Below are positions 19,837 to 46,298 of a stretch of DNA of 64,000 nt, piece after piece. Location of the stretch: the NCBI GenBank assembly GCA_963762125.1, contig CAVXJO010000001.1, positions 72,610 to 136,609 of the forward strand. Direction: 5' to 3'. This DNA comes from an uncultured Thermoleophilia bacterium (GTDB lineage Bacteria > Actinomycetota > Thermoleophilia > UBA2241). The notes under the pieces were generated by a model. The model was not told the DNA's origin, ran no database searches, and saw only the letters and a list, made by a program, of their open reading frames with translations. Each line of letters begins with the position of its first letter. Position 1 is the first letter of the stretch. The translations under genes were made by a program, and so were the position numbers.

Positions 19837-19999
19837 CACACACCTCGTCACCGGAGGCGGTGACGCCATGGTACTCGATGGGCGCCTGACGCGAGGCGGA
19901 CGGCGCCCCCTTCTTCATCACGCGCCGTGCTCGCATCCCGAGCGACGCCGGTATGGCGTGCGGCGGCTTGACCGAGCCACGGCGCGTCGTCTAGCATCC

Positions 20000-20165: not shown

Positions 20166-20236
20166 AGAGTGTGCCGACGCGTCCCGCGTGGTGAACGGGA
20201 TGGCGGCGGCGCATGCTGTGGCCTCGAACACGGGGG

Positions 20237-20275
20237 GCCCGGGCCAGACGAAGTGTCGGCCCGGGCTTTGTCGTC
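20237..20275 (+). terminator. intrinsic terminator / riboswitch expression platform
   Basis: Stem gcccgggcc / ggcccgggc with a 12-nt loop, followed by TTTGTCGTCTTCGT. Lies between the aptamer and the permease start. Confidence 0.5.
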
Positions 20276-20295
20276 TTCGTGACCGGGAGGCAGGC

Positions 20296-21135: not shown

Positions 21136-21140
21136 ACCCC

Positions 21141-22211: not shown

Positions 22212-23080
22212 CCGCCGCGGCGCTCACGGTGACGGCGGTCTCGGCCGGCTACGGCAGCGGCGAAGACGCCTCAGGCGGAGTGCTGGCCGGCGTCGACTTC
22301 GAGGTGCTCGCCGGTGAGTGTCTCGCCGTCGTCGGCCGCAGCGGCTGCGGCAAGAGCACGCTCCTCAATGTCCTTGCCGGCGTGCATGCACCGGCGGCCG
22401 GGGGCGTCCGCGTGGGCGGCGAGGTCGTCGCGGGGGGCGACTTGCGGGGCACGGGCTCGCCCGGCTGCACGTCGGGTCACGCCGCGTATCTGTTCCAGCA
22501 GGACCTTCTGCTGCCGTGGAAGGGAGCTCTCGCGAACGCCGTGTTCGCGGCGCGCGTGGCGGCTGGACGCGCCGCCCGCCGCGATCGACGCGGGCTCGAG
22601 CGGCGCGCCGAAGCGTTGCTCCGCGAGTTCGGTCTTGGTGACAGCCTGGAGCTACTGCCGCGCGAATTGTCCGGAGGCATGCGTCAGCGCGTGGCCCTGG
22701 CCCGGACCGTGCTCATGGACCGTGGGGTGATCCTTCTCGACGAGCCGTTCGGAAGTCTCGACGCGGTCACCCGCGCTGAGATGCGTCTCTGGCTGCTGGA
22801 CGTGATGGCGGCGCACCCCGCGACCTGGGTGCTGGTCACCCATGACGTGGACGAGGCGGTGCTGCTCGGCGACCAGGTCGCCGTCTTGCGCGGCCGGCCG
22901 GCGCGGCTCGAGGGCCGGTCACCGGCCACGCTGAGCCGCGCCCGGCGCCGGCGGATCGCGGCCGTCGCCGCGGGGGAGCCGGCGGATGCCGCGGGGCACT
23001 CGCGCTCCGACCTGGAGGCTGCCGCTGCGGCCGCCGCCGGTCTGCGCCGCGCCTTGCTTGACGAGCGGCGGGCCTCGTGA
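22208..23080 (+). CDS. ABC transporter ATP-binding protein (NitT/TauT family)
   Basis: Walker A GRSGCGKST, signature LSGGMRQR, Walker B ILLDEPFGSLD, H-loop VTHD. Confidence 0.85.
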   Translation: MTAAALTVTAVSAGYGSGEDASGGVLAGVDFEVLAGECLAVVGRSGCGKSTLLNVLAGVHAPAAGGVRVGGEVVAGGDLRGTGSPGCTSGHAAYLFQQDLLLPWKGALANAVFAARVAAGRAARRDRRGLERRAEALLREFGLGDSLELLPRELSGGMRQRVALARTVLMDRGVILLDEPFGSLDAVTRAEMRLWLLDVMAAHPATWVLVTHDVDEAVLLGDQVAVLRGRPARLEGRSPATLSRARRRRIAAVAAGEPADAAGHSRSDLEAAAAAAAGLRRALLDERRAS

Positions 23081-23114: not shown

Positions 23115-23295
23115 CCTCGGCTGCGGCGGCTGTAGCCTTGCCGGGCATCTCTCAGCTGCTGGGAAGCCGGTGCAAGGCCGGCGCTGCCCCGCAACTGTAG
23201 GCGCCGACGAACGTCGCACGGAAGCCACTGCCCCGCGGGGTGGGAAGGCGCGGCAAGTAGGACGACGCGCAAGCCAGGAGACCGTGGCCGGGAGA
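23115..23295 (+). ncRNA. cobalamin riboswitch (second copy) preceding cobU
   Basis: CTGGGAAGCCGGTGCAAGGCCGGCGCTGCCCCGCAACTGTAGG then GAAGCCACTG and GGGAAGGCG...AAGCCAGGAGACC. The downstream GAGGGAGGG RBS is likely sequestered by the expression platform. Confidence 0.75.
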
Positions 23296-23328
23296 TCACT
23301 GCGACAACGCCTCGAGGGAGGGCCTGCG

Positions 23329-24075
23329 GTGGACACAGCAGACGACCAGTCCGGCCAGGGCCGGCTCATTCTCGTCACGGGCGGCGCCCGCAGCGGCAAG
23401 AGCACGTACGCGGAGCGGCTCGCGGCGCGGCTTGCCGAGCCGCGTGGCGGCCGGGTCACCTATATCGCCACGTCCGAGGCGCACGACGAGGAGATGGAGC
23501 AGCGCGTGAGCGCGCACCAGACTTCGCGGCCGGAGACGTGGACGACCGTCGAGTGCCCCATCGAGGCGCCGGCGGCTCTGCGCGCGGCCGCCGGCGCCGG
23601 ACCCGCGCGGTCGCCCGGCGCCCCTCCCGTCGTCCTGCTCGACTGCGTCACCCTCTGGGTGACCAATCTGCTCTTCAGCGGCGGCGCGTTCGGCGGCAGC
23701 GAGCCGCCGGAAGACGGCTACAACTACGACAAGGACCTGCTGCCGCCGGCCGAGGAGCGCGCCGCCGCGGAGCGAGTCACGGCCGCGGTCACCGACCTGC
23801 TCGCGGCCGTCGCCGAGACCGGCGTCACGCTCGTGGCCGTCACCAACGAGGTCGGTCTCGGCGTCGTCCCGGAGTACCCGCTCGCCCGCCTCTACCGCGA
23901 CCAGCTGGGCTGGGCCAACCAGCGCCTGGCCCGTGACGCCGACGGCCTCTACCTCCTCGTCTCCGGTTACGCGCTCGACGTCAAAGCGCTGGCTGCCGGC
24001 TCGCCTGCCGCTGTCGGCCCATCCCCCGCCCCGTCCATCGACGACCCTTCGTCACCGTCCAAGGAGCCCCAGTGA
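23329..24075 (+). CDS. cobU: bifunctional adenosylcobinamide kinase / adenosylcobinamide-phosphate guanylyltransferase
   Basis: P-loop LILVTGGARSGKSTYAE. ~248 aa. CobU/CobP family organisation. GTG start 6 nt after the GAGGGAGGG RBS. Confidence 0.8.
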   Translation: MDTADDQSGQGRLILVTGGARSGKSTYAERLAARLAEPRGGRVTYIATSEAHDEEMEQRVSAHQTSRPETWTTVECPIEAPAALRAAAGAGPARSPGAPPVVLLDCVTLWVTNLLFSGGAFGGSEPPEDGYNYDKDLLPPAEERAAAERVTAAVTDLLAAVAETGVTLVAVTNEVGLGVVPEYPLARLYRDQLGWANQRLARDADGLYLLVSGYALDVKALAAGSPAAVGPSPAPSIDDPSSPSKEPQ

Positions 24076-25157
24076 CCGACCTCCTCGACCGCACCCTCGC
24101 CGCCATCGGCCCGCTCGATGCCGACGCCATGCGCGCCGCCGAGGCGCGCCAGCTTCAGCTCACCAAACCACCCAAGGCGCTCGGGCGCCTCGAGACACTG
24201 TCCATCCAGCTCGCCGGCATCCAAGGCCGGGAACAGCCGGTCATCGCGGACAAGGCGATCGCGGTGATGGCGGCCGACCATGGCGTCACCGCGGAGGGCG
24301 TGAGCGCGTTCCCCGCCGAGGTGACGCCGGCGATGGTCTTCAACATGGCCGCCGGCGGCGCCGGCATCAACGTGATCGGCCGCCACGTCGGCGCGCGCGT
24401 CGTCGTCACCGACGTCGGCGTCGACGCCGACCTCAGCGCCGCCGAAGGCGTGCGCCAGAAGAAGATCCGCATGGGCACCGCCAACATGGCCCAGGGTCCG
24501 GCGATGACCCGTGAAGAGGCCGTGCGCGCCGTCGAGATCGGCATCGAACTGGTCGAGGAGGAGCTGGCCAACGGCCTCGACATCATCGCCACGGGCGAGG
24601 TCGGCATCGGCAACACGACGGCCGCGTCGGCCGTCATCGCCGCCCTCACCGGCGAGCCGGCGGCGAGGGTCACCGGCCGGGGCACGGGGATCACCAAGGA
24701 CGCGCTCGCCGGCAAAGTGGCGGTGATCGAGAAGGCGCTGGCGGTCAACTCGCCCGACGCCGCCGACCCGATCGACGTGCTCGCCAAAGTCGGCGGTCTC
24801 GACATCGCCGCCATGACCGGCGTGTTCCTCGGCGGCGCGGCGCACCGCATCCCGGTCGTCATGGACGGGTTCATCAGCGCCGCCGCGGCGCTCGCCGCCG
24901 TGCGCCTCTGCCACGAGTGCGTGGACTACATCCTGCCCAGCCACGTGAGCATCGAGGTCGGCCACCAGGTCGTGCTCGAGGAGCTCGACCTGGTGCCGCT
25001 CTTCGACCTCCAGATGCGCCTCGGCGAGGGCACCGGCGCGGCTCTCTCGATGAGCATCATCGAAGCCTCCGCGCGCGTCCTCAGCGAGATGGCGACCTTC
25101 GAGAGCGCCGGCGTCGCCGGGGACCCCAGTGAGGCCGATTCCGAGCTGACGCGATAA
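24072..25157 (+). CDS. cobT: nicotinate-nucleotide--dimethylbenzimidazole phosphoribosyltransferase
   Basis: Characteristic CobT sequence (LTKPPKALGRLE..., ADHGV, GEVGIGNTT, MDGFISAAAAL). Start codon overlaps the cobU stop. Confidence 0.85.
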   Translation: MTDLLDRTLAAIGPLDADAMRAAEARQLQLTKPPKALGRLETLSIQLAGIQGREQPVIADKAIAVMAADHGVTAEGVSAFPAEVTPAMVFNMAAGGAGINVIGRHVGARVVVTDVGVDADLSAAEGVRQKKIRMGTANMAQGPAMTREEAVRAVEIGIELVEEELANGLDIIATGEVGIGNTTAASAVIAALTGEPAARVTGRGTGITKDALAGKVAVIEKALAVNSPDAADPIDVLAKVGGLDIAAMTGVFLGGAAHRIPVVMDGFISAAAALAAVRLCHECVDYILPSHVSIEVGHQVVLEELDLVPLFDLQMRLGEGTGAALSMSIIEASARVLSEMATFESAGVAGDPSEADSELTR

Positions 25158-25206
25158 GGTCGGCGGCGACTCGAGAACGCAAGCTGGCTCAGGACTTCAC
25201 GAGACG

Positions 25207-26067
25207 ATGACGGACACCGACCAGACACAGGTGCAGGGACCAGACGCGACCCCGCCGCGGGACGGCTCGACCGGCGCCGGCTCCATCGGCCGCCGCCTGA
25301 CGCTCGCCGTGACGTTCCTGACCGGCGTCCCGCTCGAGGTGGAGGGCGATGTGAGCCCCAGCGACCTGTGGGGGAGCATGGGCTGGTACCCGCTCGTCGG
25401 GCTGGCCATGGGCGTCGTCGCGTGGGCGGTCTACGCGGGGCTGATCTGGTTCCTCCCGGGCTTGGTCGCGGCGACGCTGGTCGTCATCCTGCTCGAGTTG
25501 CTCACGCGGGGCTTGCATCTCGATGGCCTGATGGACACGGCCGACGGGATCCTGAGCGGCGCGCCGCGCGAGCGGGCGCTCGAGATCATGAAGGACCACA
25601 ACGTCGGCGCGATGGGCGTCGCGGCGGCGGTCCTTGTCCTGGTGCTCAAGATCGCGGCCCTGGGTGCGCTCGCGCGTGCAGACGCGGCCGCTCCGCTGCT
25701 CGCCGGCTGGTGCGCGGCGCGCACGCTTCCGGCGCTCAACGTCTACTGGTGGCCGTACGCCCGCCCGGTCGGGACCGGAGAGGCGTTCACCCGCGAGCAC
25801 ACTCCGGGGCCTCTGCAGCTGGCCGGCGGCCTGCTGCTGGCCGGCGTCGTCATCGCCGGCCTCGCCGGCCTCTGGATCGGCGCCGCCGGCTCGTGGTACG
25901 CCGGCCTCCTGACCGCCGTGGTCGCGATGGCTGTGGCGCTGGGCGTGCAGGCTGTCGTGGCGAAGCGCCTCGGCGGCCTCACCGGGGACGTCTACGGTAT
26001 GGGCATCGAGCTTGCCGAAGCGGCAGCGCTGGTCGTCGGCTGCGCGATCGTGGGGCTGGCGACGTGA
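25207..26067 (+). CDS. cobS: adenosylcobinamide-GDP ribazoletransferase (cobalamin 5'-phosphate synthase)
   Basis: Multi-TM protein with the DGLMDTADG motif. Confidence 0.85.
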   Translation: MTDTDQTQVQGPDATPPRDGSTGAGSIGRRLTLAVTFLTGVPLEVEGDVSPSDLWGSMGWYPLVGLAMGVVAWAVYAGLIWFLPGLVAATLVVILLELLTRGLHLDGLMDTADGILSGAPRERALEIMKDHNVGAMGVAAAVLVLVLKIAALGALARADAAAPLLAGWCAARTLPALNVYWWPYARPVGTGEAFTREHTPGPLQLAGGLLLAGVVIAGLAGLWIGAAGSWYAGLLTAVVAMAVALGVQAVVAKRLGGLTGDVYGMGIELAEAAALVVGCAIVGLAT

Positions 26068-26948
26068 AGCTATACCTCGTCCGTCACGGCCAGTCTACGG
26101 GTAACATCGGCGGCACGCTGATGGGGCAGAGCGACCATCCGCTGACGCCGCTCGGTGAGAGACAGGCGCGGGCCGCGGCCGGACGCCTGGCGCCGTTCGG
26201 GCCCATGCCCGTGTACTCCAGCGACTTGCCGCGGGCCCGGGCGACGGCAGAGTACGTCGTCGGCGCCTGGACGGCGGCGGGCGGCGTGGTGGCGGCCGCC
26301 GGCAGGCCTGCCCGTCTGACGCTGGATCCGCGCCTTCGCGAGATCGCCCTGGGTGACTACGAAGGCCGCCCCTGGCAGGAGTTCGAGGCAGACACCGCGC
26401 TGACGGCTGCGTTCGCCGAAGATCCGTACCGTACCGCGCTACCGAACGGCGAGTCGCTGGAGCATCTGGAGGCCCGGGTCCATGCTGCCGTCCTCGATAT
26501 CCTCGTGCCGTTCGGCGTCGACGACACGGGCGCGTACTGCGGCAACGCGGTGAGCCAGGGCGACGCCAGCGCCGGCGATCGCAATGGCTCGGACGTCGCT
26601 GCCATGAAGGCCGGGGCGGCGGCGGCCGCCGTTGACGGCGCGGCGACCGCTGGGGCAGGCGAGACAGGCCTGCCGGAGACCATGGACGCGAGCGTCGTCG
26701 CCACAGGTCTCGTGCCGGTGGAGGACGGCGGGTGCGCTTGTCTGGTCGCTCACGACGGCCCCATCCGGGCGATCCTCAACCACTATCTGGGCGTGCCGCC
26801 GGAGAAGTGGTGGACCCTGTCCACCACCCACGGCGGCGTTTCCCTGCTCGAGTTCGCCGGCGGCTGCGTCACGGTCCGCTTCGTGAATGGGACGGGTCAT
26901 CTCGCCGGGCTCGAGCCGGACAAGTACGTGCCGTCCGACGACGACTGA
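26064..26948 (+). CDS. cobC: histidine phosphatase family protein, probable alpha-ribazole phosphatase (CobC) with ~90-aa low-complexity insertion
   Basis: LYLVRHGQS (RHG catalytic motif) ... LAHDGPIRAIL (second His). GTGA overlap with cobS. An Ala/Gly/Asp-rich insert sits between the two conserved halves. Confidence 0.65.
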   Translation: MKLYLVRHGQSTGNIGGTLMGQSDHPLTPLGERQARAAAGRLAPFGPMPVYSSDLPRARATAEYVVGAWTAAGGVVAAAGRPARLTLDPRLREIALGDYEGRPWQEFEADTALTAAFAEDPYRTALPNGESLEHLEARVHAAVLDILVPFGVDDTGAYCGNAVSQGDASAGDRNGSDVAAMKAGAAAAAVDGAATAGAGETGLPETMDASVVATGLVPVEDGGCACLVAHDGPIRAILNHYLGVPPEKWWTLSTTHGGVSLLEFAGGCVTVRFVNGTGHLAGLEPDKYVPSDDD

Positions 26949-26971
26949 CCGGCGTTCCGCCCGCCCCCCTC

Positions 26972-27922
26972 GTGATCTTCGTCCCTCATGACTGGCGTCT
27001 CGCACTGGCCACGGTGCTGCTCGCGGGATTGATCGACGTGACGCTGGGCGAGCCACCGAACGCGCTGCATCCCGTCGTGTGGATGGGCCGGCTGATCGGC
27101 GCGCTGGAGCGGCGCCGGCCGCGGGGCCGACCCGGCGCCGAGTTCGCCTACGGTGTCCTCATCGTGGTCGTGACGGCTGGAGCGGCGTTCGCCGCTGGCC
27201 TGCTGCTCACCCTCGTGCTGGACCGCCTGCCCTTGTGGGGCGCGCTGCTCATCGGCGCCTGCGCGCTCAAGACGACCTTCTCGCTGCGGGGGCTGGTGCG
27301 CGCCGGCCGCGACGTCCAGCGCGCGCTGGCCTCCGACACCGCCGCGGCGCGCGCCTCTCTCGCTGCCCTGGTCAGTCGCTCGCCGGACCTCGATCCGCCG
27401 CTCATCGTCTCGGCGACCATCGAATCGCTGGCCGAGAACCTCACGGACAGCGTCGTCTCGCCGCTGCTCGCCTACGCCCTCTTCGGGCTGCCCGGCGCCT
27501 TGGCCTACAGGGCCGTCAACACGATGGACGCGATGCTGGGCTACCGCGACGAGCGCGAGTACGTGGGCAAGGCTGCGGCGCGCAGCGACGACGCGGCGAA
27601 CTGGCTGCCGACGCGCATCACCGGCCTGCTGCTCGTAGCCGTCTCGGCGCTCAAGGGGACCGCCGGCCGCGCCTGGTGGGCGTTCCGCACGCAGCACCAG
27701 CCCGAGTACGGGCCCAACAAGACCCTGGCCATCGCTACCATGGCCGGCAGCCTGGGTGTGCAGCTGCAGAAGCCCGGGGCGTACGCGCTGGGAACGGCGG
27801 ACCGTGCGCTGACGAGCCAGGTCATCGACGACGCCGTGTGGCGCGTGTGGGCGGCCGGCGGCGCGACGGTCGCGCTGGCCGCCGGCCTCGCCGCTCTGCT
27901 GACCTGGGCGGTGTGGGGATGA
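26972..27922 (+). CDS. cbiB: adenosylcobinamide-phosphate synthase (CbiB/CobD membrane protein)
   Basis: TM protein with HPVVWMGRLIGALE near the N-terminus and the conserved ESLAENLTDSVVSPL region. Confidence 0.8.
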   Translation: MIFVPHDWRLALATVLLAGLIDVTLGEPPNALHPVVWMGRLIGALERRRPRGRPGAEFAYGVLIVVVTAGAAFAAGLLLTLVLDRLPLWGALLIGACALKTTFSLRGLVRAGRDVQRALASDTAAARASLAALVSRSPDLDPPLIVSATIESLAENLTDSVVSPLLAYALFGLPGALAYRAVNTMDAMLGYRDEREYVGKAAARSDDAANWLPTRITGLLLVAVSALKGTAGRAWWAFRTQHQPEYGPNKTLAIATMAGSLGVQLQKPGAYALGTADRALTSQVIDDAVWRVWAAGGATVALAAGLAALLTWAVWG

Positions 27923-29078
27923 CCGCGGGATCGCCGCACGGCGCCGCGCCGGCGGCGGAGTCACCTGCGCCGGCACGCCTGCGCCGGGTCGCGGCGTCCG
28001 TGCACGGCGCGGTCGACCCTTCGGCGCTGCGCGCCGAAGGCATCGATCCGGCCGACCATCGTCGACTTCAGCTCCAACCAGTCGCCGCTCGGAGCGGCGC
28101 CGGCGGTCGCCGCCGCCGTCGCCGGCGCGGTCGTCGACGCGTACCCGGACCCGCGTCGCGGCGGAGCTCACCGCGGCGCTTGCTCTTCGCCATGGCGTGA
28201 CGCCGGCGCACGTGGTGTGCGGCAACGGCAGCACCGAGCTCATCCGGCTGCTGGCTCAGCTGGCGCTACGGCCGGGCGACGTCGCCCTGGCGCTCGCGCC
28301 CGTCTTCGGCGAGTGTGAAGTAGCGACCGCTCTCGCTCGAGCGCGCCTCGAGCGCGTCCCGCTCGCGTACGAAGAGGATGAGGCGGGCTTCTTCTGCGAC
28401 GAGCCCGCCCTCCGCGAGGCGCTCCGCCAGCAGAGCCCCCGGCTCTGCTGGCTCTGCTCGCCGAACAACCCGACCGGGGCGGCGCTGCCCGCGGCGCTGG
28501 CCGCCGCCCTCGCCGCCGACCACCCGGCCACGCTCTTCGTCCTCGACGAGGCCTACTGCGACCTGCTGCCGGACCCACAGTGGAATCGGGCGCAGCTGCC
28601 GCCCGACCTCATCGTCCTACGCTCGATGACCAAGTACTGGGGTCTCGCCGGTCTGCGTCTCGGCTATGCCATCGCCGACCCCGCCGCGGCCGCGGCGCTA
28701 CGCGCCGCGACCCCTCCGTGGAACGTCAATGCCTGTGCTCAGGCGGCCGGCCTGGCGGCGCTCGCCGATGGCCAGCACCATGACCGGGCGGTCGCGCTGC
28801 TCGTCGCCGAGCGCGACCGCCTCGTCGTCGGCCTGTGCTCGCTCGGCTGGATCAGCGAGCCGACCAGCGCCGGCTTCTTCCTCATCCGCGCCGGCGACGC
28901 CGGGGCCGTCCGCGGCGCACTGCTCGCCCGCGGCTGCCTCGTGCGCGACTGCACCTCTTTCGGCCTGCCCTCCCACGTCCGCGTCAGCCCGCGTCACCCC
29001 GGCCAGAACGACTTGCTCCTCGAGGCGTTCTCGTCGCTCGCGCCGCCCCCCGCGGCGGCTGCCGAGGCCCCGCGATGA
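27919..29078 (+). pseudogene. cobD: L-threonine-O-3-phosphate decarboxylase (CobD, class I/II aminotransferase fold) interrupted by two closely spaced +1 frameshifts
   Basis: Three frame segments: MTAGSPHG...LRAEGIDPAD (frame A, from the ATGA overlap with cbiB); IVDFSSNQSPLGAAPAVAAAVAGAVVDAYPDPR (frame B); AELTAALALRHGVTPAHVVCGNGSTELI...SMTKYWGLAGLRLGY (frame C, ORF 28197..29078, contains the PLP-Lys region). Each junction is repaired by deleting a single C, at ~28055 and ~28135. Confidence 0.65.
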
Positions 29079-30619
29079 CCGTCGCTCGCGGCCGCGTCAT
29101 CATGCTGCAGGGCACGGCCTCGCATGCCGGCAAGACCGTGCTGGCCGCGGCGCTGTGCCGCATCTACGCGCGCCGCGGCCTGCGCGTGGCGCCGTTCAAG
29201 GCGCAGAACCTGGCGCTCAACTCGTACGTGACGGAGGACGGCGGCGAGATGGGGCGCGCCCAGGTGTATCAGGCGCGCGCGGCCGGCCTCGAGCCGCAGG
29301 TGGACATGAACCCGGTGCTGCTCAAGCCCAGCTCCGACGCGACCAGCCAGGTCGTCGTCATGGGCAGGCCGGTCGGGCACATGACGGTGCCCGAGTATCA
29401 GGCCTATCAGGCGGAAGTCTGGCCCACCGTCACGGCAGCCTTCGAACGCCTGCGGACGTCACGCGACCTCATCGTCCTCGAGGGCGCCGGCAGCTCGGCG
29501 GAGGTGAACCTCCGGGGGCGGGACATCGTCAACATGCGCATGGCGCTGCACGCCCGATCACCGGTCCTTCTGGTCGGGGACATCGACCGCGGAGGTGTCT
29601 TCGCCAGCCTCCTCGGCCATGTGGAGCTGTTCACGCCCGAGGAGCGCGGGCTGGTGGCGGGGTTCGTCATCAACAAGATGCGCGGCGATGCGAGCCAGCT
29701 GGACTCCGGCATCGAGATCCTCGCCGAGCGCACCGGGGTCCCGACGCTCGGCGTCGTGCCCATGCTCGAGGGATGGAGCGGCGACGAAGAGGACTCGGTC
29801 GCGCTCGACGGCTGGCAGCGCCGGGAGAAGCAGGACGCGCCGCTGCGGATCGCCGTCGTCCGCCTGCCGTACCTCAGCAACTCGACCGACACGGACGCGC
29901 TGGCCGCGGAGCCGGATGTGGACGTGCGCTTCGTGAGCTCGCCCGACGAGCTCGCGGGGGCTGCGGCGATCGTGGTGCCCGGCACCAAGAGCACGATCGC
30001 CGACCTCGCCTGGCTGCGGCAACGCGGCCTTGACGACGCGGTGAAGGCGGCGGCCGCGGCCGGGACGCCGGTCGTCGGCATCTGCGGCGGCTACCAGATG
30101 CTCGGCCGCCGCATCGTCGATCCCGGGCACATCGAGTCCGCCGCCCTCGCCGTCGACGGCCTCGGCCTGCTCGACGTGGAGACGACCTTCGCCGCAGGCA
30201 AGCGGACGGTCCGCACCGAGGGTGAGCTGATCGGCCGGGACGCCGGACCGCTCGCCCCCGGCGCGCGCGTCTCCAGCGGCGGCCTTCTCGGCTCGCCCGG
30301 GACGCAGGTGCGCGGCTACGAGATCCACATGGGACGCACCGAGCTCGGGCCCGGCGCCGCGCCGCTGCTGCGACTGCACGGCGCCGGTGAGAGCGAGCAC
30401 CTCGACGGCGCCGTCGCCGGCGCCGTCTGTGGCACCTACGTGCACGGGCTCTTCGACCATGCGGATCTGCGCACCGCGTTCCTGAACGGCTTGCGCGCGG
30501 CGCGCGGCCTGGCTCCCCGCCCGGCCTCGGTCCCGCAGGGCGACGACATCGACCGCCTCGCAGACCACGTCGAGGCGCACCTCGACACAGCCGCGCTCGA
30601 CGCCGTCATCTGGGCCTGA
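29075..30619 (+). CDS. cobQ: cobyric acid synthase
   Basis: N-terminal CobQ/DTB-synthetase-like ATPase (IMLQGTASHAGKT) and C-terminal GATase1 domain (GICGGYQMLG, HGLF). ATGA overlap with cobD. Confidence 0.9.
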   Translation: MTVARGRVIMLQGTASHAGKTVLAAALCRIYARRGLRVAPFKAQNLALNSYVTEDGGEMGRAQVYQARAAGLEPQVDMNPVLLKPSSDATSQVVVMGRPVGHMTVPEYQAYQAEVWPTVTAAFERLRTSRDLIVLEGAGSSAEVNLRGRDIVNMRMALHARSPVLLVGDIDRGGVFASLLGHVELFTPEERGLVAGFVINKMRGDASQLDSGIEILAERTGVPTLGVVPMLEGWSGDEEDSVALDGWQRREKQDAPLRIAVVRLPYLSNSTDTDALAAEPDVDVRFVSSPDELAGAAAIVVPGTKSTIADLAWLRQRGLDDAVKAAAAAGTPVVGICGGYQMLGRRIVDPGHIESAALAVDGLGLLDVETTFAAGKRTVRTEGELIGRDAGPLAPGARVSSGGLLGSPGTQVRGYEIHMGRTELGPGAAPLLRLHGAGESEHLDGAVAGAVCGTYVHGLFDHADLRTAFLNGLRAARGLAPRPASVPQGDDIDRLADHVEAHLDTAALDAVIWA

Positions 30620-39264: not shown

Positions 39265-40371
39265 ATGGACCTCAGAGTCTTCAGCATCGGTGCCGCCGAC
39301 TCGCTGGTCCCCGTCGTCGCTGTCCTCGCCACCGTCGCGGCCGCCTGGCTGCTCTACCGGTACCGCCGGCGCATGGTGGAGATGCGCCCGCCCGGGGCGC
39401 CGCGGACCGTGAGCGTGGATCCGCAGCCGTTCGAGTACGTCCAGCTCAGGGAAGTAGTCATGGTCGCGGCGCTGGCGCTGGCGGTGTACGTGCTGATCCC
39501 GCAGCTCGCCGACGTGACCGGAGTGTGGTCGAGCATCAAGCACGCCGACTGGGCGTGGGCGCTGTGGGCGGTGGGCGCGTCGGCGCTCACCTTCGTGGCC
39601 GCCGCGATCGGCCTGATGGGGGCCGTCCCTCAACGCCTTCCTCTCCCTCTGACGACGGCCGCCCAGCTGGCCGGTGCCTTCGTCAACCGCATCGTCCCCG
39701 CCCGCATGGGCGGCATGGCGACCAACCTGCGCTACCTGCAGAAGCGGGGCGTGGGCCTCGCCGTCGCGACTGCGAGCATCGGCGTGCAGCAGGTGTCGGG
39801 GCTCCTCGTGCACGTCGCCCTCTCGGCTGTCCTTCTGGTCTGGGCCGGACGCAACGCCGGGGACGCACTGCAGGCGCTTCCCTCCGAACAGACCGTGCTG
39901 ATCGGGCTCACCGTCCTCGGCGTCTTCTCAGGCCTGCTCTTCCTGCTGCCGTGGGGCCGGCGTCTCCTGCGCACGCGCGTCCTGCCGCCGCTGCAGCGAT
40001 CTGGCAGCGGCGTCGCCGCCATCGCGCGCAGCCCGCTCAAGCTGCTGGAGTTGTTCGGGGGCGCGGTGTTCCTCACGCTCATGAACATCGCTGCGCTCGT
40101 CTTCTCGGTGTACGCGTTCGGAACGACCGACGTGAGCGTGGCCGTGATCGGCGTCGCCTTTCTCGTGGGCTCCGGCGTTGCGTCGGTCGCCCCGACGCCG
40201 GGCAATCTCGGCGCCGTCGAGGCGGCGCTCATCGCCGGCCTGACCACCGTGGGCGTGGACCCCGACGTCGCCGTTCCTGCGGTCTTCCTCTTCCGCATCG
40301 TCACCTTCTGGCTGCCGATCCTGCCGGGCTGGCTGACGCTCGTCCTTCTGCAGCGCCGGGGTGACCTCTGA
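39265..40371 (+). CDS. lysylphosphatidylglycerol-synthase-like transmembrane domain protein (UPF0104 / flippase-like family)
   Basis: 8 or more TM helices. ARMGGMATNLRYL and a C-terminal PGNLGAVEAAL motif, typical of the MprF-TM-like / TIGR00374 family. Confidence 0.6.
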   Translation: MDLRVFSIGAADSLVPVVAVLATVAAAWLLYRYRRRMVEMRPPGAPRTVSVDPQPFEYVQLREVVMVAALALAVYVLIPQLADVTGVWSSIKHADWAWALWAVGASALTFVAAAIGLMGAVPQRLPLPLTTAAQLAGAFVNRIVPARMGGMATNLRYLQKRGVGLAVATASIGVQQVSGLLVHVALSAVLLVWAGRNAGDALQALPSEQTVLIGLTVLGVFSGLLFLLPWGRRLLRTRVLPPLQRSGSGVAAIARSPLKLLELFGGAVFLTLMNIAALVFSVYAFGTTDVSVAVIGVAFLVGSGVASVAPTPGNLGAVEAALIAGLTTVGVDPDVAVPAVFLFRIVTFWLPILPGWLTLVLLQRRGDL

Positions 40372-40399
40372 CTCGGGCGCTCGCCGGCAAAGCCTGAAC

Positions 40400-40956
40400 A
40401 CAGGCCGGCCGTGACCTACCCCGCCCGACCTGTCGCGCAGGTAGCGACTCTTCGTGAGCTCCGGCGACAGCGCCTCCGTGCCCACGTGGCGGAACGCCAG
40501 CGGGCGCTTCATCCTGCCGAACAAGGGCACGCCGTCCCCCAACAGGATCGGGACTCTGGTGATGATGAGCTCGTCGATCAGGTCCGAGTCCAGGAAGCTC
40601 TGGATGGTGCGGCCACCGTCCACGTAGAGGTTCAGGTAGCCGCGCCTCCGGAGTGCGGAGACGATGCTCTGCGGGTCGCCGCTCACGATCTCCGCCTTGT
40701 CCGCCACCGCCGCGGGCACCGCCTCCAGGCTCGTGCTCAGCACGAACACCGGTTTGCCGTATGGCCACTCGCCGAACGCCAGCACCGTCTCGAAGGTCCT
40801 CCGGCCCATCACGATCGCATCGACGCCGGAGAGGAACTCGGCGAAGCCGTAGTCGCTGCCTTCGGGGTTGGGCTGCTCGGTCAGCCACTCGAGGTCTCCG
40901 GCACGGTCCGCGATGAGACCATCCAGGCTCGTCGCCACATAGACGTAGTTGGGCAT
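40400..40956 (-). CDS. dihydrofolate reductase family protein (RibD C-terminal domain), C-terminal boundary uncertain
   Basis: MPNYVYVATSLDGLIADRAGDLEWL...VMGRRTFE...LYVDGGRTIQSFL. The ORF stays open to 39928, running antisense into the convergent gene, so the real stop or a frameshift is near 40400-40430. Confidence 0.6.
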
Positions 40957-41122
40957 GGCGCCTCCCTTCGGTCGCGCTGACTGGAGACAGTATCGCCTTC
41001 CGATGCGCGACGCGATGCGGCGGTGCTCGCGCTATGCGCGCGCTGCCGGGGCCGAGAGCAGGGGGGCCGTGGCCACGGGAGCAGTCACACGAGTTGACGA
41101 ACCGTCATCAGATTGATAGCTT

Positions 41123-41153
41123 TTCTCAACACTGTTGAGAACAGTTCTCAACT
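41123..41153. promoter_or_regulatory. perfect 9-1-9 inverted repeat TTCTCAACA-C-TGTTGAGAA plus a third half-site (GTTCTCAAC), candidate Fur-family operator
   Basis: Lies 20-50 nt upstream of the Fur-family gene start. The palindrome is perfect, and a direct repeat of the half-site follows 4 nt later. Confidence 0.5.
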
Positions 41154-41171
41154 GGAGCTTGGGGAGCACGC

Positions 41172-41624
41172 GTGACCGACCCGCAGCCGGCGCACGACAT
41201 CGAGGCCGTCTTCCATCAGAAGGGCATCCCGTTCACCCGGCAGCGCCGGCTGATCTGGGACTTCTTCGCCGGCGCCGACCGCGCCACCACCATCACGGAG
41301 GCGGCGGACGCTCTGCGCAGCGAGGGCGTCGGTCAGGCCACCGTGTACCGCACCGTGCAGCTTCTGAGCGACCTTGGTCTGCTCGCGCGGGTGCAGGATG
41401 GACGCGGCGAGATCTGCTTCATCGCGCCGCCGATCGGACACAGTCACCCGCTCATCTGCGGCGTCTGCCGCAAGGTGGTCCGCTTCGACGGCGATGGTGA
41501 CGTCGCGGATCTCGAGGCGCGGCTCGCCGAGGCCACGGGCTTCACGATCTACGGCCACCACCTCGAGGTGTACGGCATCTGCCCCTCCTGTCGCGCCGCG
41601 AAGGAGGGCGACCATGGCGAGTGA
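41172..41624 (+). CDS. Fur family transcriptional regulator (Fur/Zur/PerR-like)
   Basis: N-terminal winged helix (RLIWDFF..., ATVYRTVQLLSDLGLL). Metal-binding HSHPLICGVC and C-terminal CPSC (CxxC...CxxC structural Zn site). Confidence 0.85.
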   Translation: MTDPQPAHDIEAVFHQKGIPFTRQRRLIWDFFAGADRATTITEAADALRSEGVGQATVYRTVQLLSDLGLLARVQDGRGEICFIAPPIGHSHPLICGVCRKVVRFDGDGDVADLEARLAEATGFTIYGHHLEVYGICPSCRAAKEGDHGE

Positions 41625-42396
41625 CGCGCCGCGGACCAGCGTTCCGTCCGCCAACGGCAGGTACGCCGGCGCGTCGCTCGCCGCTCGATCCGACCAGGAG
41701 ACCGATGTGGATCAGGAACTGATCGCCGGCGCGAGCGGCGACGAACTCGCCGGCCGCCGCTTCTTCTGCTCGTGGAGCGGCGGCAAGGACGCCTATCTTG
41801 CGCTCCAGCGCGCCACACTGCGCCGCGGCGAGCCGGCCGCCCTCGTGTGCATGCTGCACGAGGACGGCCGCGTGAGTCGCGGCCACGGCCTGCCGCTCGC
41901 GCTGCTCGAGGAGCAGGCCGCCGCACTCGGCATACCGCTCATCGCGCGGGCCACCACGTGGGACGACTACGAGGCGACCTACGTCTCGCTCCTGCACGGA
42001 CTGCGCGCAGAGGGTGTGGAGGCCGGCGTGTTCGGCGACATCGATCTCCAGGCGCATCGCGACTGGGTCGAGGGCGTCTGCGAGGTCGCCGGGCTCGGCT
42101 GCCACCTGCCGCTGTGGCAGGAGCCGCGGCGCCGGCTGCTGGACGAGTTCCTCGCCGGCGGCTCACGTGCCACCATCGTCGCCGTCGACTCGTCCAGGCT
42201 CGGCGCCGAGTTCCTCGGCCTCGAACTGGACGACGCCGTCATCGCCCGCCTCGAGGCCGCCGGCGTGGACGCCTGTGGTGAGGAGGGTGAGTACCACACC
42301 ATGGTCACCCAGGCCCCGCTGTTCTCGCGTCCGGTCCCACTCGCATGGGATGGGACCGAGGAGCGCGAGGGTCACTACGTTCTCAGCTATGTCTAG
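41614..42396 (+). CDS. Dph6-related PP-loop ATP pyrophosphatase (MJ0570-like ATP-binding domain protein)
   Basis: PP-loop FFCSWSGGKDAYLAL, then the conserved GDIDLQAHRDWVE and EYHT motifs of the diphthine-ammonia-ligase-like family. ATG overlaps the end of the Fur-family gene. Confidence 0.7.
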   Translation: MASDAPRTSVPSANGRYAGASLAARSDQETDVDQELIAGASGDELAGRRFFCSWSGGKDAYLALQRATLRRGEPAALVCMLHEDGRVSRGHGLPLALLEEQAAALGIPLIARATTWDDYEATYVSLLHGLRAEGVEAGVFGDIDLQAHRDWVEGVCEVAGLGCHLPLWQEPRRRLLDEFLAGGSRATIVAVDSSRLGAEFLGLELDDAVIARLEAAGVDACGEEGEYHTMVTQAPLFSRPVPLAWDGTEEREGHYVLSYV

Positions 42397-42424
42397 CAAA
42401 GTCACGAAGGGAGTCACCACCGCC

Positions 42425-43384
42425 ATGACTACTACTCGTACCGGCCGCCTCACCGCGGCGCTCCTCCTCGTCGCCGTGCTCGCCATCGGCGTCGTCGCCT
42501 TGAGCGCCTGCGGCTCGGGCTCCGACACCGCCGCCTCGAGTTCGCCGTCCGCCGCCGCGGCCGGCCCGATCACGGTCACCGACGACTCCGGCGCCGAGGT
42601 CACGCTCGACAAGGCCGCCGAGCGCATCGTCAGCCTCGCGCCCGCCGATACCGAGATCGCTTACGCCATCGGCGCCGGCGACAAGATGGTCGCCGGCACC
42701 AGCTACGACGACTATCCGGAAGAGGCGAAGGCGCTCCCCAAGATCGGCGACTTCAACAACCCGAACATCGAGAAGACCGCTTCGTTCTCGCCAGACCTCG
42801 TCCTGGCGGCCGGCGGCCTTCAGGCCAAGCTGCAGAGCAAGCTCGAGGCCCTCGGCATGACGGTCTATGTGGTCGACCCCAAGACCTACGACGACGTCAT
42901 CAACACCATCGAGAACATCGGCAAGCTCACGGGCTCCGAGGAGGGCGCGGCGACGGTCGTAGCCACGATGACCGCCGCCCGGCAGGAGGTCCAGGCCGCT
43001 GTGGGCGACCTGCCCAAGACCACGACCTTCCTCGAGATCTACAGCAAGCCGCTGATGACCGCCGGCTCGGATACGTTCATCGACGACATGATCACCACCG
43101 CCGGCGGCGAGAACATCGGCGCCCAAGCCGGCAGCGGCTTCCCGACCTTCAGCACTGAGGTGCTGGTCAAGGACGACCCGCAGGTCTACATCGCCGACTC
43201 CGGCTCCATGAGCAAGCCCGGCGACATCAACGCCCGCGCTGGCTTCTCCGACCTCACCGCGGTCAAGGACGGCCACGTCTACGTGATCGAGGACAGCACG
43301 ATCGCACGACCTGGCCCGCGGCTCGCCGAGGGCCTCAAGGCGCTGGCCGGCATGATCCATCCGGAGGCGTCGAGCGCGCAGTGA
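42425..43384 (+). CDS. ABC transporter substrate-binding lipoprotein, TroA/BtuF-like (siderophore/heme/B12 class, cluster A-2)
   Basis: Lipobox LSACGSG. RIVSLAPADTEIAYAIGAGDKMVAGTS is typical of the Peripla_BP_2 family. AAGGGA RBS. Confidence 0.8.
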   Translation: MTTTRTGRLTAALLLVAVLAIGVVALSACGSGSDTAASSSPSAAAAGPITVTDDSGAEVTLDKAAERIVSLAPADTEIAYAIGAGDKMVAGTSYDDYPEEAKALPKIGDFNNPNIEKTASFSPDLVLAAGGLQAKLQSKLEALGMTVYVVDPKTYDDVINTIENIGKLTGSEEGAATVVATMTAARQEVQAAVGDLPKTTTFLEIYSKPLMTAGSDTFIDDMITTAGGENIGAQAGSGFPTFSTEVLVKDDPQVYIADSGSMSKPGDINARAGFSDLTAVKDGHVYVIEDSTIARPGPRLAEGLKALAGMIHPEASSAQ

Positions 43385-44379
43385 GCAAGCTCGCCCGCAC
43401 AGGCGTGTGGCCGGGGATCCTCCTGGCCGCCGGCATCCTCGCCGTCTGCCTCGTGCTGGCGCTCGCCCTGGGACCGGCCTCGCTGTCGGTGGGACGGATA
43501 TGGCACCTGCTCTTCGCGGGGCCGGTCCGGGGCGACCTCGACAACGCCATCTTCTGGCAGATCCGCATGCCGCGCGTCCTCACCGCCGCCCTCGTCGGTG
43601 CGGCGCTGGCCGTGGCCGGCGTGATCCTCCAGGACCTTTTCCTCAACCCGCTGACCGATCCGTACGTGACGGGCGTCTCGTCCGGCGCCGCGCTCGGCGC
43701 CACCATCGGCATCGTGCTGCACTTCGGCAACCTGCCCTGGATGACCGTGCTCGCCATCGTCGGTGGCCTCGGCACGCTGGTCATAGTGTGGATGGCGGCG
43801 CGCCGCCGCGGCCGCATCGACGTCTTCGTGCTCCTGCTCGCCGGCGTCACCATCTCCTACCTGGCCAGCGCCCTCGTCACCGTCCTCATGATCAAGGCGA
43901 ACCAGGACATGACGGCGATCATCTACTGGCTCATGGGCAGCTTCTCCGGGCGGGGTTGGCCGGACGTGCGCATCGCGCTGGTCACGATCCCGTTCATGAT
44001 CCTGCCGCTGTTCTTCGGCCGCGAGATGGACATCCTTCTGCAGGGTGAGAAGCGGGCGCTCGAGCTCGGCGTGGAAGTCGAGCGCACCAAGCGGATGCTG
44101 TTGGTGACGGCCGGGGTGCTCACCGCGCTGGCCGTCTCGGTGAGCGGCATCATCGGCTTCGTCGGCCTGGTGGTGCCCCACATCGTGCGGCTGCTGGTCG
44201 GGCCGGGACACCGTGGGCTGCTCCCGGTCTCGCTGCTGGTCGGCTCCTCGATGATGGTGATCGCCGACCTCCTGAGCCGCACGGTGATCTCGCCCAACGA
44301 GATCCCCGTCGGCGTGGTCACCACGTTCGTCGGCGCTCCCCTGTTCGTGTACCTGCTGCGGCACGGGAGACGGGCGTGA
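43381..44379 (+). CDS. FecCD family ABC transporter permease (iron-siderophore/heme/B12 type)
   Basis: FecCD signature (ALALGPASLSVGRIWHLL, RMPRVLTAALVGAALAVAGVILQ, GVSSGAALGA). ~10 TM segments. Confidence 0.9.
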   Translation: MSKLARTGVWPGILLAAGILAVCLVLALALGPASLSVGRIWHLLFAGPVRGDLDNAIFWQIRMPRVLTAALVGAALAVAGVILQDLFLNPLTDPYVTGVSSGAALGATIGIVLHFGNLPWMTVLAIVGGLGTLVIVWMAARRRGRIDVFVLLLAGVTISYLASALVTVLMIKANQDMTAIIYWLMGSFSGRGWPDVRIALVTIPFMILPLFFGREMDILLQGEKRALELGVEVERTKRMLLVTAGVLTALAVSVSGIIGFVGLVVPHIVRLLVGPGHRGLLPVSLLVGSSMMVIADLLSRTVISPNEIPVGVVTTFVGAPLFVYLLRHGRRA

Positions 44380-45719
44380 CGGCCGCGCCACGCTCCCACC
44401 CTGGAGCTCCGGAGGCTGCCGCTCCACTCGTGGCCCTCAAGGACGTCGACTTCGCCTACGACGAGCGACCGGTGCTGCGGCGCATCGGCTTCACGCTCGA
44501 GTCCGGAGACTTCGTCGGCATCGTCGGTCCCAACGGGAGCGGCAAGTCGACGCTGGTCGATCTCATCGACGGCATTCACCAACCGGCCGCCGGCGAGGTG
44601 CTCATCAAGGGGCTGCCGACCGGGTCGTACAAGCGCAAGGCCATGGCCCGCGAGGTCGCGCTCGTGCCGCAGCATTTCGACCTCGACTTCGACCTCGCCG
44701 TCCGCGAGGTCGTGGAGATGGGCGGCTACTGCCGCGCCAAAGACCCGGCGGCGAGCGGCGACCCCGAGCTGACGCTGGCCCGCCTCGGGGTCGCCCACCT
44801 CGTGAACCGCCGCTTCTCGGAGCTATCCGGCGGCGAGAAGCAGCTCGTGGTGCTCGCTCAGGCGCTGATGCAGCGGGCGCCCCTGCTGCTGCTCGACGAG
44901 CCGGCCTCCGCGCTCGACGTGTCGCATCAGCTGCGGCTCTTCGACTTGCTCAGGGAGCTCAACGCCGACGGACTGACGGTGCTCTGCATCCTGCACGATC
45001 TCAACCTGGCGCTGCACTACTTCGACAAGCTGCTGGTGCTCAGCGACGGCGAGGTCGCGGCGTTCGGGCCGCCCGACGACGTGCTGCGGCCCGAGGTGGT
45101 CGAGGCCGTGTACGGCGTGCGCGCCTACCTGCATCGGCACGCCGGACGCACCTACCTGACATTCTCGCCGCGGTTGCGCGGCGAGCGCCGCGGGCGCGTG
45201 CATCTCATCTGCGGCGGGGGCACCGGCGCGGGGATGATGCGCGAGCTGGCGGACGCCGGGTACGAAGTCACCGCCGGCGTCCTCAACGCGCTTGACACCG
45301 ACGAGGAGACCGGGCGCGAGCTCGGCCTCGAGATGGCCGTGGAGGCGCCCTTCTCGCCGGTCGGCGACGAGGCGCACGCGGAGAACCTGGAACTGCTGCG
45401 CGCCGCCGACCTCGTCGTCGTGAGCGCCATCCCGGTTAGCCACGGCAACGCGCGCAACATCGCCGCCGCCCGTGAGGCGCTGGCCGCCGGCATTCCCGTG
45501 TGGGCCGACGATGGCGTGCGCGCCAATGACTTCGCCGGCGCGGTCGACGAGCTGGCGGCGGCGGGCGCGCAATTCTTCGCCGGCGAGGAGGCGCTGCTCA
45601 CGGCTGTGCGGGGCCGCAGCCTCTCCGGCTCCGGATCGGCGTCCGCGGTGGAGACCGCCTCCACGCGAGTCGCGGCTCCGCCGGAAGACGACTCGCCGGC
45701 CTCGGGGCCGGCGACGTAA
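44376..45719 (+). CDS. ABC transporter ATP-binding protein (FepC/BtuD-like) fused to a C-terminal ~190-aa CoA-binding-like Rossmann domain
   Basis: Walker A GPNGSGKST, signature LSGGEKQ, Walker B LLLDEPASALD, H-loop ILHDL. After ~aa 260 comes VHLICGGGTGAGMM...GYEVTAGVLN...DLVVVSAIP...GIPVWADDG, resembling the PF13380/PF02629-type CoA-binding fold. Confidence 0.8.
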   Translation: MTAAPRSHPGAPEAAAPLVALKDVDFAYDERPVLRRIGFTLESGDFVGIVGPNGSGKSTLVDLIDGIHQPAAGEVLIKGLPTGSYKRKAMAREVALVPQHFDLDFDLAVREVVEMGGYCRAKDPAASGDPELTLARLGVAHLVNRRFSELSGGEKQLVVLAQALMQRAPLLLLDEPASALDVSHQLRLFDLLRELNADGLTVLCILHDLNLALHYFDKLLVLSDGEVAAFGPPDDVLRPEVVEAVYGVRAYLHRHAGRTYLTFSPRLRGERRGRVHLICGGGTGAGMMRELADAGYEVTAGVLNALDTDEETGRELGLEMAVEAPFSPVGDEAHAENLELLRAADLVVVSAIPVSHGNARNIAAAREALAAGIPVWADDGVRANDFAGAVDELAAAGAQFFAGEEALLTAVRGRSLSGSGSASAVETASTRVAAPPEDDSPASGPAT

Positions 45720-45848
45720 GGGAGACGGAGCGGGCGGCGCGCCGCGTGGCGCCCGCTCCGTCTCCCTGCTCCACCCGGGCGCCAGACCCAGTACGCGCCC
45801 CGGCCCGCCGTCCTGTCGCGTCTCCGCCGCACGGCGCCGCGAGTCAGG

Positions 45849-46298
45849 CTAGCCGAGCCGCTCCCTGAGCTCGGCTGCGTACGCGCGGTCCTGCTGCGCG
45901 CTCTTGGCGAACAGGCGCGCCTGCAGTTCGAGCGCGTCCGCGCACTGCATCGCGAACTCCTCGTGGTAGCGCGCGGCGTCTTCCTCGGCCTGGATGAGCT
46001 GCTCGACGGCGGCGGGCCAGCTCGTCTCCGGTTCGGCGTCGAGCACCCCCAGGTAGGGGCCGCCCTTGAGCGAGCCGGCCGGGGCCGACGCTCTGGTGTC
46101 TGCCCCTGTCTGTTGCATCATCAGCTTCTGTACGCGGTCGTCGTGTGTGCAGACGACCTCTTCGAGCTTGTCCTGCCACTCCTGGTCCGGCGCCACGATA
46201 CCGGCTGCGGCCGCGAAGTCGGCGCACGCCTGTTCTGCTTCGAGCGCGAAGCGGAGGGCGGATCCGTAGGCTGTGATCTCGGGGAACTCGTGGGCCAC
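45849..46298 (-). CDS. hypothetical protein
   Basis: 149-aa acidic ORF with no recognisable motif. Convergent with the ABC operon. Confidence 0.35.
   Translation of the reverse strand: MAHEFPEITAYGSALRFALEAEQACADFAAAAGIVAPDQEWQDKLEEVVCTHDDRVQKLMMQQTGADTRASAPAGSLKGGPYLGVLDAEPETSWPAAVEQLIQAEEDAARYHEEFAMQCADALELQARLFAKSAQQDRAYAAELRERLG

Follow-up and report, generated by a model that had tools for sequence, protein, structure and literature searches.

A putative Fur-family repressor heads a predicted corrinoid uptake and salvage operon in an uncultured Thermoleophilia bacterium

Riboswitch control of bacterial B12 and cobalt uptake is the textbook case, and an ABC transporter for corrinoids in Halobacterium is reportedly the subject of the paper 'ABC transporter for corrinoids in Halobacterium'. 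Here, we describe an operon within a 64,000-nucleotide stretch of DNA (the window; G+C content 70.5%) from an uncultured Thermoleophilia bacterium (contig CAVXJO010000001.1, positions 72,610 to 136,609), in which, on the plus strand at 41172-45719, a Fur-like gene is followed by genes for a PP-loop ATP pyrophosphatase, a substrate-binding protein, a FecCD permease and an ABC ATPase. The PP-loop protein belongs to DUF71/COG2102, a family that has been split into Dph6 and a bacterial/archaeal subgroup termed DUF71-B12 (de Crecy-Lagard et al. 2012, Biol Direct 7:32, PMC3541065). In this subgroup the EGGE/DxE188 motif of Dph6 is replaced by ENGE[F/Y]H, and 75 of 102 members adjoin BtuCDF genes while 18 adjoin cbiB; the proposed role is CbiZ-like, in pseudo-B12 salvage, and the distribution of CbiZ in bacteria is anticorrelated (PMC3541065).

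The operon type is, therefore, already known as a comparative-genomics prediction. An earlier reading of the window from its letters, the original prediction, recognized the operon and took the linkage between enzyme and importer to be undescribed, a claim refuted by the publication of the PP-loop/BtuFCD pairing as DUF71-B12 in 2012 (PMC3541065). It missed the regulator, which is the more novel element: a lineage-specific putative Fur-family repressor with a degenerate sensing site, predicted to act in place of a cobalamin riboswitch at corrinoid/cobalt uptake operons. What the computations show directly is the gene families, the operon architecture, the conserved operator, the lack of a riboswitch and the link of enzyme and regulator alike to B12 and cobalt genes.

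We consider it likely that the locus serves corrinoid uptake and salvage and is controlled by a dedicated Fur-family repressor signalling cobalt/B12 sufficiency. The BtuF-like lipoprotein, the BtuC-like permease and the long BtuD-like ATPase would import cobamides or cobinamide-type precursors, and the DUF71-B12 enzyme would adenylate a side-chain carboxyl of the imported corrinoid with ATP, so that an amide is formed or restored. From there, the product would pass into the nucleotide-loop pathway of CbiB, CobU, CobT, CobS and CobC, which is encoded 11-18 kb upstream. Dimers of the Fur-like protein would bind two tandem 7-3-7 palindromes (consensus TTGAGAA-N3-TTCTCAA) covering the -10 box and the transcription start and, when loaded with a co-repressor that reports cobalt/B12 sufficiency, would shut off the regulator's own gene together with the four genes downstream. 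We infer the cargo, the enzyme reaction, the repression and the effector from the observations set out below.

The PP-loop enzyme, the importer and their corrinoid link

The PP-loop protein matched PF01902 (Diphthami_syn_2) with 124.7 bits, against a cut-off of 23.2, and its SWSGGKDA loop is invariant in 15 aligned PP-loop sequences. The C-terminal motif, GEEGEYH228T, brings a histidine into alignment with Glu188 of the P. furiosus Dph6 protein PF0828 (3rjz, GEGGEFET), and departs from the published ENGE[F/Y]H at the second position, which is E and not N. A GEEGEYH-type motif is common to 72 of 74 distinct homologues, that is, to all those in which the motif was readable. We rejected an identity as Dph6 (diphthine-ammonia ligase), given a TIGR03679 score of 87 bits against a cut-off of 197 and the exchange of the catalytic Glu188 for His; diphthamide is, moreover, absent from bacteria (PMC3541065). 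Instead, the SGGKD loop within a PF01902 domain, the His motif, the BtuF/C/D-like neighbours and the presence of cbiB in the window are all as described for DUF71-B12. Our literature search found no experimental follow-up to DUF71-B12, and no paper on a PP-loop enzyme in cobamide remodelling. Conservation of the N-terminal extension of about 45 residues (41614-41750; MASDAPRTSVPSANGR...) is restricted to the crown group of the clade; PP-loop orthologues further away begin near residue 35-45.

The association between the PP-loop gene and its neighbourhood, which the original prediction proposed to check across related genomes, proved to be a genuine tie. The gene lies directly 3' of the Fur-like gene in all 23 genomes and in 59 of 66 metagenome loci, the latter being the evaluable fraction of 80 further loci obtained in a metagenome scan with the Fur query. 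That the enzyme acts on the imported molecule, as was also suggested, we judge to be reasonable.

The connection to B12 became apparent from distant loci in other phyla, among the 80 loci that a scan of one genome per species gave. Rfam placed a cobalamin riboswitch ahead of every distant cluster that combines transporter and PP-loop genes (L036, L041, L048, L059, L067, L070 and L072), and these seven clusters come from Geothermincola, Peptococcaceae, Moorellaceae, Gracilibacter and others; the order in L028 is riboswitch, BtuB-like receptor, DUF71. Among the Fur-headed operons, L020, L098, L166 and L168 have a cob salvage cluster immediately adjoining the operon, cob salvage genes are found within about 5 kb of it in L025, and in L021 a riboswitch-controlled cobA is divergent from it. 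The window itself contains a riboswitch (23127-23300) leading cobU, cobT, cobS, a cobC-type phosphatase gene, cbiB (about 27.0-27.9 kb), cobD and cobQ, a cluster that ends about 10.5 kb upstream of the operon. The operon has no cobalamin riboswitch of its own: the interval 40300-42600 was empty of relevant matches at E up to 10, on which ground a hidden or degenerate riboswitch there was rejected, and none was found ahead of the operon in the 23 species-level genomes that carry the Fur-like gene.

Turning to the importer, Peripla_BP_2, FecCD and ABC ATPase families occur together in the one operon, as in BtuFCD-type importers, and the signal peptide of the binding protein ends in the lipobox LSAC. 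The best NCBIfam model for the permease was the haloarchaeal corrinoid BtuC (NF007081, 285 bits against an equivalog cut-off of 461), and that for the ATPase was the haloarchaeal BtuD (NF007082, 273 bits against 537), whereas the binding protein was best matched by TIGR04281 and BtuF (the latter with 118 bits against 234). The NF007082 match extends over model positions 2-394 of 402 and so takes in the additional C-terminal domain of the ATPase. The original prediction had described this domain as a Rossmann domain and pointed to CoA_binding_2; the predicted fold, a generic Rossmann-like three-layer sandwich, agrees with the former, but CoA_binding_2 was not found. Our local Pfam copy returned no match for residues 265-447, and orthologues of 86-96% identity carry PF27219 ('MJ0874') instead in precomputed tables, as do all 58 homologues of the C-terminal domain except P0282 and P0298, both of which are partial matches. 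No paper on MJ0874 was found in the literature.

Comparison of the binding protein with the PDB placed the B12 binders 5ysc (E-value 7e-31) and E. coli BtuF (about 1e-23) ahead of heme binders (1e-17) and siderophore binders (1e-8), and the single top match, 4m7o, is labelled 'iron-binding protein'. This label, the sub-cut-off matches to IsdE and F420-0 transporter models, the Fur-family regulator and the fact that Peripla_BP_2/FecCD systems move siderophores, heme and B12 alike could be taken to suggest that the transporter carries a metallophore or heme, and that the PP-loop enzyme adenylates that molecule. We regard this as very unlikely, as the enzyme bears the DUF71-B12 signature, homologous clusters are under riboswitch control, cob genes adjoin the operon in several genomes, one related operon (L152, see below) joins cbiMNQO with PP-loop and transporter genes, and the family models matched best are those of the corrinoid BtuC and BtuD. 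Together, the enzyme signature, the riboswitch-led homologous clusters, the cob genes adjoining or near the operon and the BtuC/BtuD-type matches point to a corrinoid, and not a siderophore or heme, as most probably the cargo. From the substrates originally listed (metallophore, heme or corrinoid) the corrinoid is thus favoured, and the other two are disfavoured by the B12 context.

The Fur-like regulator, its operator and its effector

The first protein of the operon shows the Fur fold, with a PF01475 match of 52.1 bits against a cut-off of 23.1 over profile positions 2-121 of 121 and 20 Fur-family matches in the PDB. Among solved structures it comes closest to M. tuberculosis Zur, S. coelicolor Nur and Zur, and C. 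jejuni Fur, with E-values of about 1e-14 to 1e-12. All 25 distinct aligned sequences (the window protein and 24 orthologues) have the four residues of the Cys4 zinc site (C96, C99, C137 and C140), and H90-x-H92, H129-H130 and E132 are likewise invariant among orthologues. The sensing site is less well preserved. The PerR ligands H37, D85, H91, H93 and D104 align to A36, I84, H90, H92 and R104, such that two of five are kept, and A, P, S and P stand at the positions of the Zur regulatory-site ligands D62, C76, H81 and H83. H90, H92, H129 and H130 may form a remaining His-rich site in the regulator.

The Fur-like protein belongs to a small, narrow subfamily: a word-indexed search gave 343 matches, with 75-95% identity among the top 120 matches listed, and only 11 of 1.84 billion representatives were found at E <= 1e-30. 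Relatives outside the immediate group include a 58%-identical protein whose gene neighbours a cobalamin riboswitch followed by cobU (P0302) and a 56%-identical one whose gene heads cbiM-cbiN without a riboswitch (P0301). At about 50% identity and below, the neighbours shift to znuA and other transporters, as seen with P0307 (51%, heads znuA), P0305 (48%, next to an ArsP_2 permease gene) and P0309 (43%, next to an HlyD-like gene).

The seven of the 66 metagenome loci without a directly downstream PP-loop gene comprise five in cob clusters (L090, L091, L092, L118 and L156) as well as L120 and L152. Rfam detected no riboswitch in any of the seven, and several of them have the same operator half-site beside a GATAA-type -10 region. 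In L090 (5200-12000), and likewise in L091, L092, L118 and L156, a 61%-identical Fur-like gene stands alone in a cob cluster, divergent from cobC-cobS, and the 170-bp intergenic region between them contains no riboswitch. The Fur-like gene of L120 (2328-6522) is 83% identical, and behind it come open reading frames (ORFs) that we read by eye as ferrochelatase/CbiX-like, radical-SAM and HemA-like. L152 (2500-8931) consists of nine genes with overlapping junctions, in the order Fur-like, cbiM, cbiN, cbiQ, cbiO, DUF71-B12, btuF-like, FecCD and ABC ATPase, and so, as judged from its gene content, unites cobalt and corrinoid uptake genes behind one regulator gene. Wherever the context is readable, Fur-like relatives of about 55% identity or more occur exclusively beside cobalt, B12 or tetrapyrrole genes. 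Combined with the degenerate canonical Fur sensing site, this confinement of the subfamily to cobalt/B12 loci leaves the earlier assignment of a metal-responsive operon unsupported.

Two further observations concern the gene itself. Apparent natural Fur-DUF71 fusions (P0304, P0306 and P0322, and a read-through in L024 at about 2782-3942) were rejected and treated as assembly or gene-calling artefacts, because they are out of frame or contain N bases. Directly 5' of the Fur promoter in L019, at about 3720-3800, lies a short cobQ-like N-terminal fragment (MVQGTTSHAGKSVLATALCRR), recognized by eye, which is perhaps left over from an ancestral arrangement with cobQ next to Fur.

The operator was originally described as a perfect 9-1-9 palindrome with a third half-site. 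Both are present: the exact palindrome TTCTCAACA-C-TGTTGAGAA at 41123-41141 occurs as a single copy in the window, where none is expected by chance even when 3 mismatches are allowed, and the third half-site is found at 41145-41152. However, alignment of 21 distinct orthologous promoters revealed that the units of constant spacing are two tandem 7-3-7 palindromes (palindromes 1 and 2; Table 1), with the consensus TTGACg-N13-gGTTGATAG-n-TTTTCTCA-N6/7-TGAGAA-N3-TTCTCAAc. Half-sites are kept and spacers vary, and the centre bases of the 9-1-9 element, which arises from 41123-41129 of palindrome 1 together with palindrome 2, differ between genomes. The original view of an operon that opens with a Fur-family gene, its operator lying over its own promoter, is thereby supported.

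We then scanned 1.65 Mb, comprising the window plus related loci, for TGAGAA-N3-TTCTCA with at most one mismatch and obtained 94 occurrences, 93 of them between positions -250 and +60 relative to a Fur-like start. In a search for other regulon members, neither the window nor the flanking DNA of 169 loci yielded a second convincing operator site. Palindrome 1 is retained throughout the Fur subfamily, including its cbiMNQO-linked and cob-cluster-linked members; basal relatives retain palindrome 1 only, followed almost immediately by the start codon, and have GATAAT or TAATTT at the -10 position. In one cbiMN-linked relative (L084, 1493-1520) a perfect TGAGAA-AAA-TTCTCA lies over the annotated start codon, and either the operator sits over the start or the real start lies further downstream.

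These data bear on the possibility that the regulator is an ordinary Fe/Zn/Ni/Mn-responsive Fur paralogue, with corrinoid uptake as a metal-sparing response that would, for example, feed B12-dependent isozymes. The nearest solved relatives (actinobacterial Zur and Nur, C. jejuni Fur), the 51%-identical relative heading a znuA operon and the retention of the structural Cys4 site and the His-rich site are consistent with such a role. We nevertheless consider it improbable, given that relatives with readable context, down to about 55% identity, occur solely at cobalt/B12/tetrapyrrole loci, with one of them heading a cbiMNQO cobalt importer, that the operator motif is confined in 1.65 Mb to Fur-like promoters of the subfamily (93/94), and that all four Zur regulatory ligands are replaced.

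Because the subfamily occurs only beside cobalt, cobalamin or tetrapyrrole genes, the co-repressor would be expected to report cobalt/B12 sufficiency. Among the candidates, Co(II) comes first, with a chance that we place slightly below even; a corrinoid is a tentative option, and another metal is rather doubtful. A corrinoid co-repressor would imply that corrinoid is bound directly by the HxH/HH histidines that are invariant in the Fur-like protein, which would then be the protein equivalent of the cobalamin riboswitch. Irr, for comparison, senses heme via an HxH motif. Direct sensing would accord with the placement of the regulator in the riboswitch's usual positions (ahead of btuFCD-DUF71 and cbiMNQO, and beside cob genes), with the invariance of H90, H92, H129 and H130 when only two of five canonical metal ligands are left, and with a hemin-binding Fur-family protein, Har, that is on record (PMC4222909). 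On the other hand, no corrinoid-binding motif is recognizable in the regulator, nearly all known Fur-family effectors are metal ions, and a second B12 sensor seems redundant, because neighbouring cob operons in these genomes still have functional-looking riboswitches. Overall, we hold direct corrinoid sensing to be possible but unlikely; with the same reservation, such a sensor would be the founding member of a Fur-family branch for corrinoid/cobalt uptake and salvage in Thermoleophilia-type Actinomycetota. A first cobalt-specific Fur-family uptake repressor appears about twice as likely as the direct corrinoid sensor.

Several points weigh against a corrinoid operon governed by a repressor that reports cobalt/B12 sufficiency. 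The usual Fur-family signals are Fe, Zn, Mn, Ni or peroxide, and Co(II) is not distinguishable from these by the present evidence; the same genomes, in addition, already run their cob genes by B12 riboswitches. On the side of the importer, the NCBIfam equivalog cut-offs were missed for BtuF, BtuC and BtuD alike, and the specificity of the binding protein, with its top PDB match to 4m7o, is not readable from sequence. About 40 of 56 distant DUF71 loci lack both riboswitch and transporter within 8 kb, so that the DUF71 family is not universally B12-linked. All relatives stem from uncultured Thermoleophilia/Actinomycetota assemblies, and, as the metagenome loci were chosen by similarity to the Fur query and one lineage dominates, the locus counts are not independent events. 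Finally, the amide-forming reaction is proposed solely from the general chemistry of PP-loop amidoligases, and DUF71-B12 has been proposed in print to act as a CbiZ-like amidohydrolase, not as a ligase (PMC3541065). With these points included, a corrinoid uptake and salvage operon under its own Fur-family repressor is still the reading that we consider likely.

Operon layout and surroundings

The five genes and their families, as originally assigned, were all confirmed by Pfam profile searches and sequence reading (Table 1).

Table 1. Features of the operon, its control region and the upstream cob cluster (window coordinates).
Feature	Position	Strand	Remarks
-35 box TTGACG	41094-41099	+	Sequence reading; TTGAC kept in 21/21 distinct aligned orthologous promoters
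-10 box TAGCTT (TANNNT type)	41117-41122	+	17 nt past -35 box; inside operator palindrome 1
Operator palindrome 1, TTGATAG-ctt-TTCTCAA	41113-41129		7-3-7, left arm degenerate; overlaps -10 box
Operator palindrome 2, TTGAGAA-cag-TTCTCAA	41135-41151		Perfect 7-3-7; centre 22 bp past palindrome 1
Fur-family predicted repressor, 150 aa	41172-41624	+	PF01475, 52.1 bits
DUF71-B12-type PP-loop ATP pyrophosphatase, 260 aa	41614-42396	+	PF01902, SWSGGKD loop, GEEGEYH228T motif
BtuF-class substrate-binding lipoprotein	42425-43384 (alternative ATG 42389)	+	PF01497 Peripla_BP_2; lipobox
FecCD/BtuC-type permease	43381-44379	+	FecCD, 309 bits
ABC ATPase, 447 aa, long haloarchaeal BtuD type	44376-45719	+	Extra C-terminal domain
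MJ0874-type Rossmann-like domain of the ATPase, downstream of the nucleotide-binding domain	about 45195-45614	+	
GC-rich hairpin, probable terminator without U tract	45716-45769	+	Begins in ATPase stop codon (TAA 45717-45719)
Context, outside the operon: cobalamin riboswitch, cobU, cobT, cobS, cobC-type phosphatase, cbiB, cobD, cobQ	23127-30619	+	

The overlapping starts that were first proposed for the whole operon are present at three of its junctions. The Fur-like and PP-loop genes overlap by 11 nt (ATG 41614; TGA 41622-41624), and GTGA overlaps are present at the junctions between binding protein and permease and between permease and ATPase. The junction between PP-loop and binding-protein genes has an 8-nt overlap if ATG 42389 is used and a 28-nt gap if ATG 42425 is used; the latter start, with GAAGGGAG just before it, is the more likely by sequence, and these two genes would then be spaced apart.

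The strict sigma-70 promoter scan and the intrinsic terminator scan of the operon returned no matches. The promoter was identified through conservation, having escaped the strict scan because its -10 box fits only TANNNT, and the hairpin at the ATPase stop was identified through folding (-50.5 kcal/mol, z = -7.05). This strong hairpin is probably a terminator common to the operon and a convergent gene, a 149-aa ORF on the minus strand (45849-46298) that shares it. This ORF is syntenic in many related loci (59-94% identity) and had no match in Pfam or NCBIfam. With the genes, their overlaps, the end hairpin and the unique 9-1-9 palindrome all verified, the underlying observation is confirmed.

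The closest public relative of the window, a contig with a 96%-identical PP-loop protein, stems from an uncultured Thermoleophilia-type actinobacterium; no exact match to the window's ABC ATPase is on record in the assembly collection. Elsewhere in the window, a region at 19995-23080 starts with a second cobalamin riboswitch (19995-20177, 102.6 bits), which precedes a NitT/TauT-type ABC importer with genes for a BPD_transp_1 permease, an NMT1/THI5-like binding protein and an ATPase; this transporter is B12-regulated by its position, and its cargo is possibly a lower-ligand base or precursor. Unrelated to the operon are a Prismane/CO-dehydrogenase-family gene beside a ferredoxin-like ORF (13551-15910, minus strand) and, among the distant loci, an OLE RNA in a Halanaerobiales locus (L029, 14958-15501).

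Comparison with known systems

Our literature search turned up no Fur-family cobalt/B12 sensor, nor a btuF/cbiM regulator beyond conventional Fur. A dedicated Fur paralogue ahead of btuFCD-DUF71 and cbiMNQO would bring a new effector specificity to a well-studied metalloregulator family, with one operator and one operon as a simple test system. The locus likewise provides a compact setting for assaying a DUF71-B12 enzyme, the B12-salvage role of which has been a prediction since 2012, and the system may be relevant to the sharing of corrinoids in soil and sediment communities, in whose metagenomes the host lineage is abundant.

Like the DUF71-B12/BtuFCD clusters described previously, the operon places an enzyme with SGGKD and GExGE[FY]H motifs beside BtuF/BtuC/BtuD-type genes, with cbiB also in the genome; unlike in that study, which describes no protein regulator, a Fur-family gene heads the cluster and a riboswitch is absent (PMC3541065). 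The permease and ATPase fit the models for BtuFCD of Halobacterium sp. NRC-1 best (NF007081/NF007082), including the C-terminal domain of the ATPase, but differ from that system in their sub-cut-off scores, the bacterial host and a lipoprotein in place of a PGF-CTERM-anchored binding protein. CbiZ, the adenosylcobinamide/pseudo-B12 amidohydrolase, performs the salvage step that DUF71-B12 was proposed to replace; its fold is unrelated to that of the PP-loop enzyme and it does not need ATP, and the PP-loop enzyme would be expected to build an amide rather than hydrolyse it.

With respect to regulation, the gene kinds are the same as in the riboswitch-run (RF00174) btuFCD, cbiMNQO and cob operons, and the riboswitch is used on the neighbouring cob operons, whereas the window operon has a predicted DNA-binding repressor and an operator, and no aptamer at E up to 10. 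The regulator shares with actinobacterial Zur and Nur the Fur fold, the Cys4 site, an inverted-repeat operator over the promoter and its encoding together with an uptake system, and differs from these and other Fur-family repressors in keeping two of five sensing ligands and in the cobalt/B12 context of its regulon. Classical Fur, Zur and PerR boxes are of the 7-1-7 type, from which the operator of the window differs both in its half-site, TTCTCAA, and in its 7-3-7 spacing.

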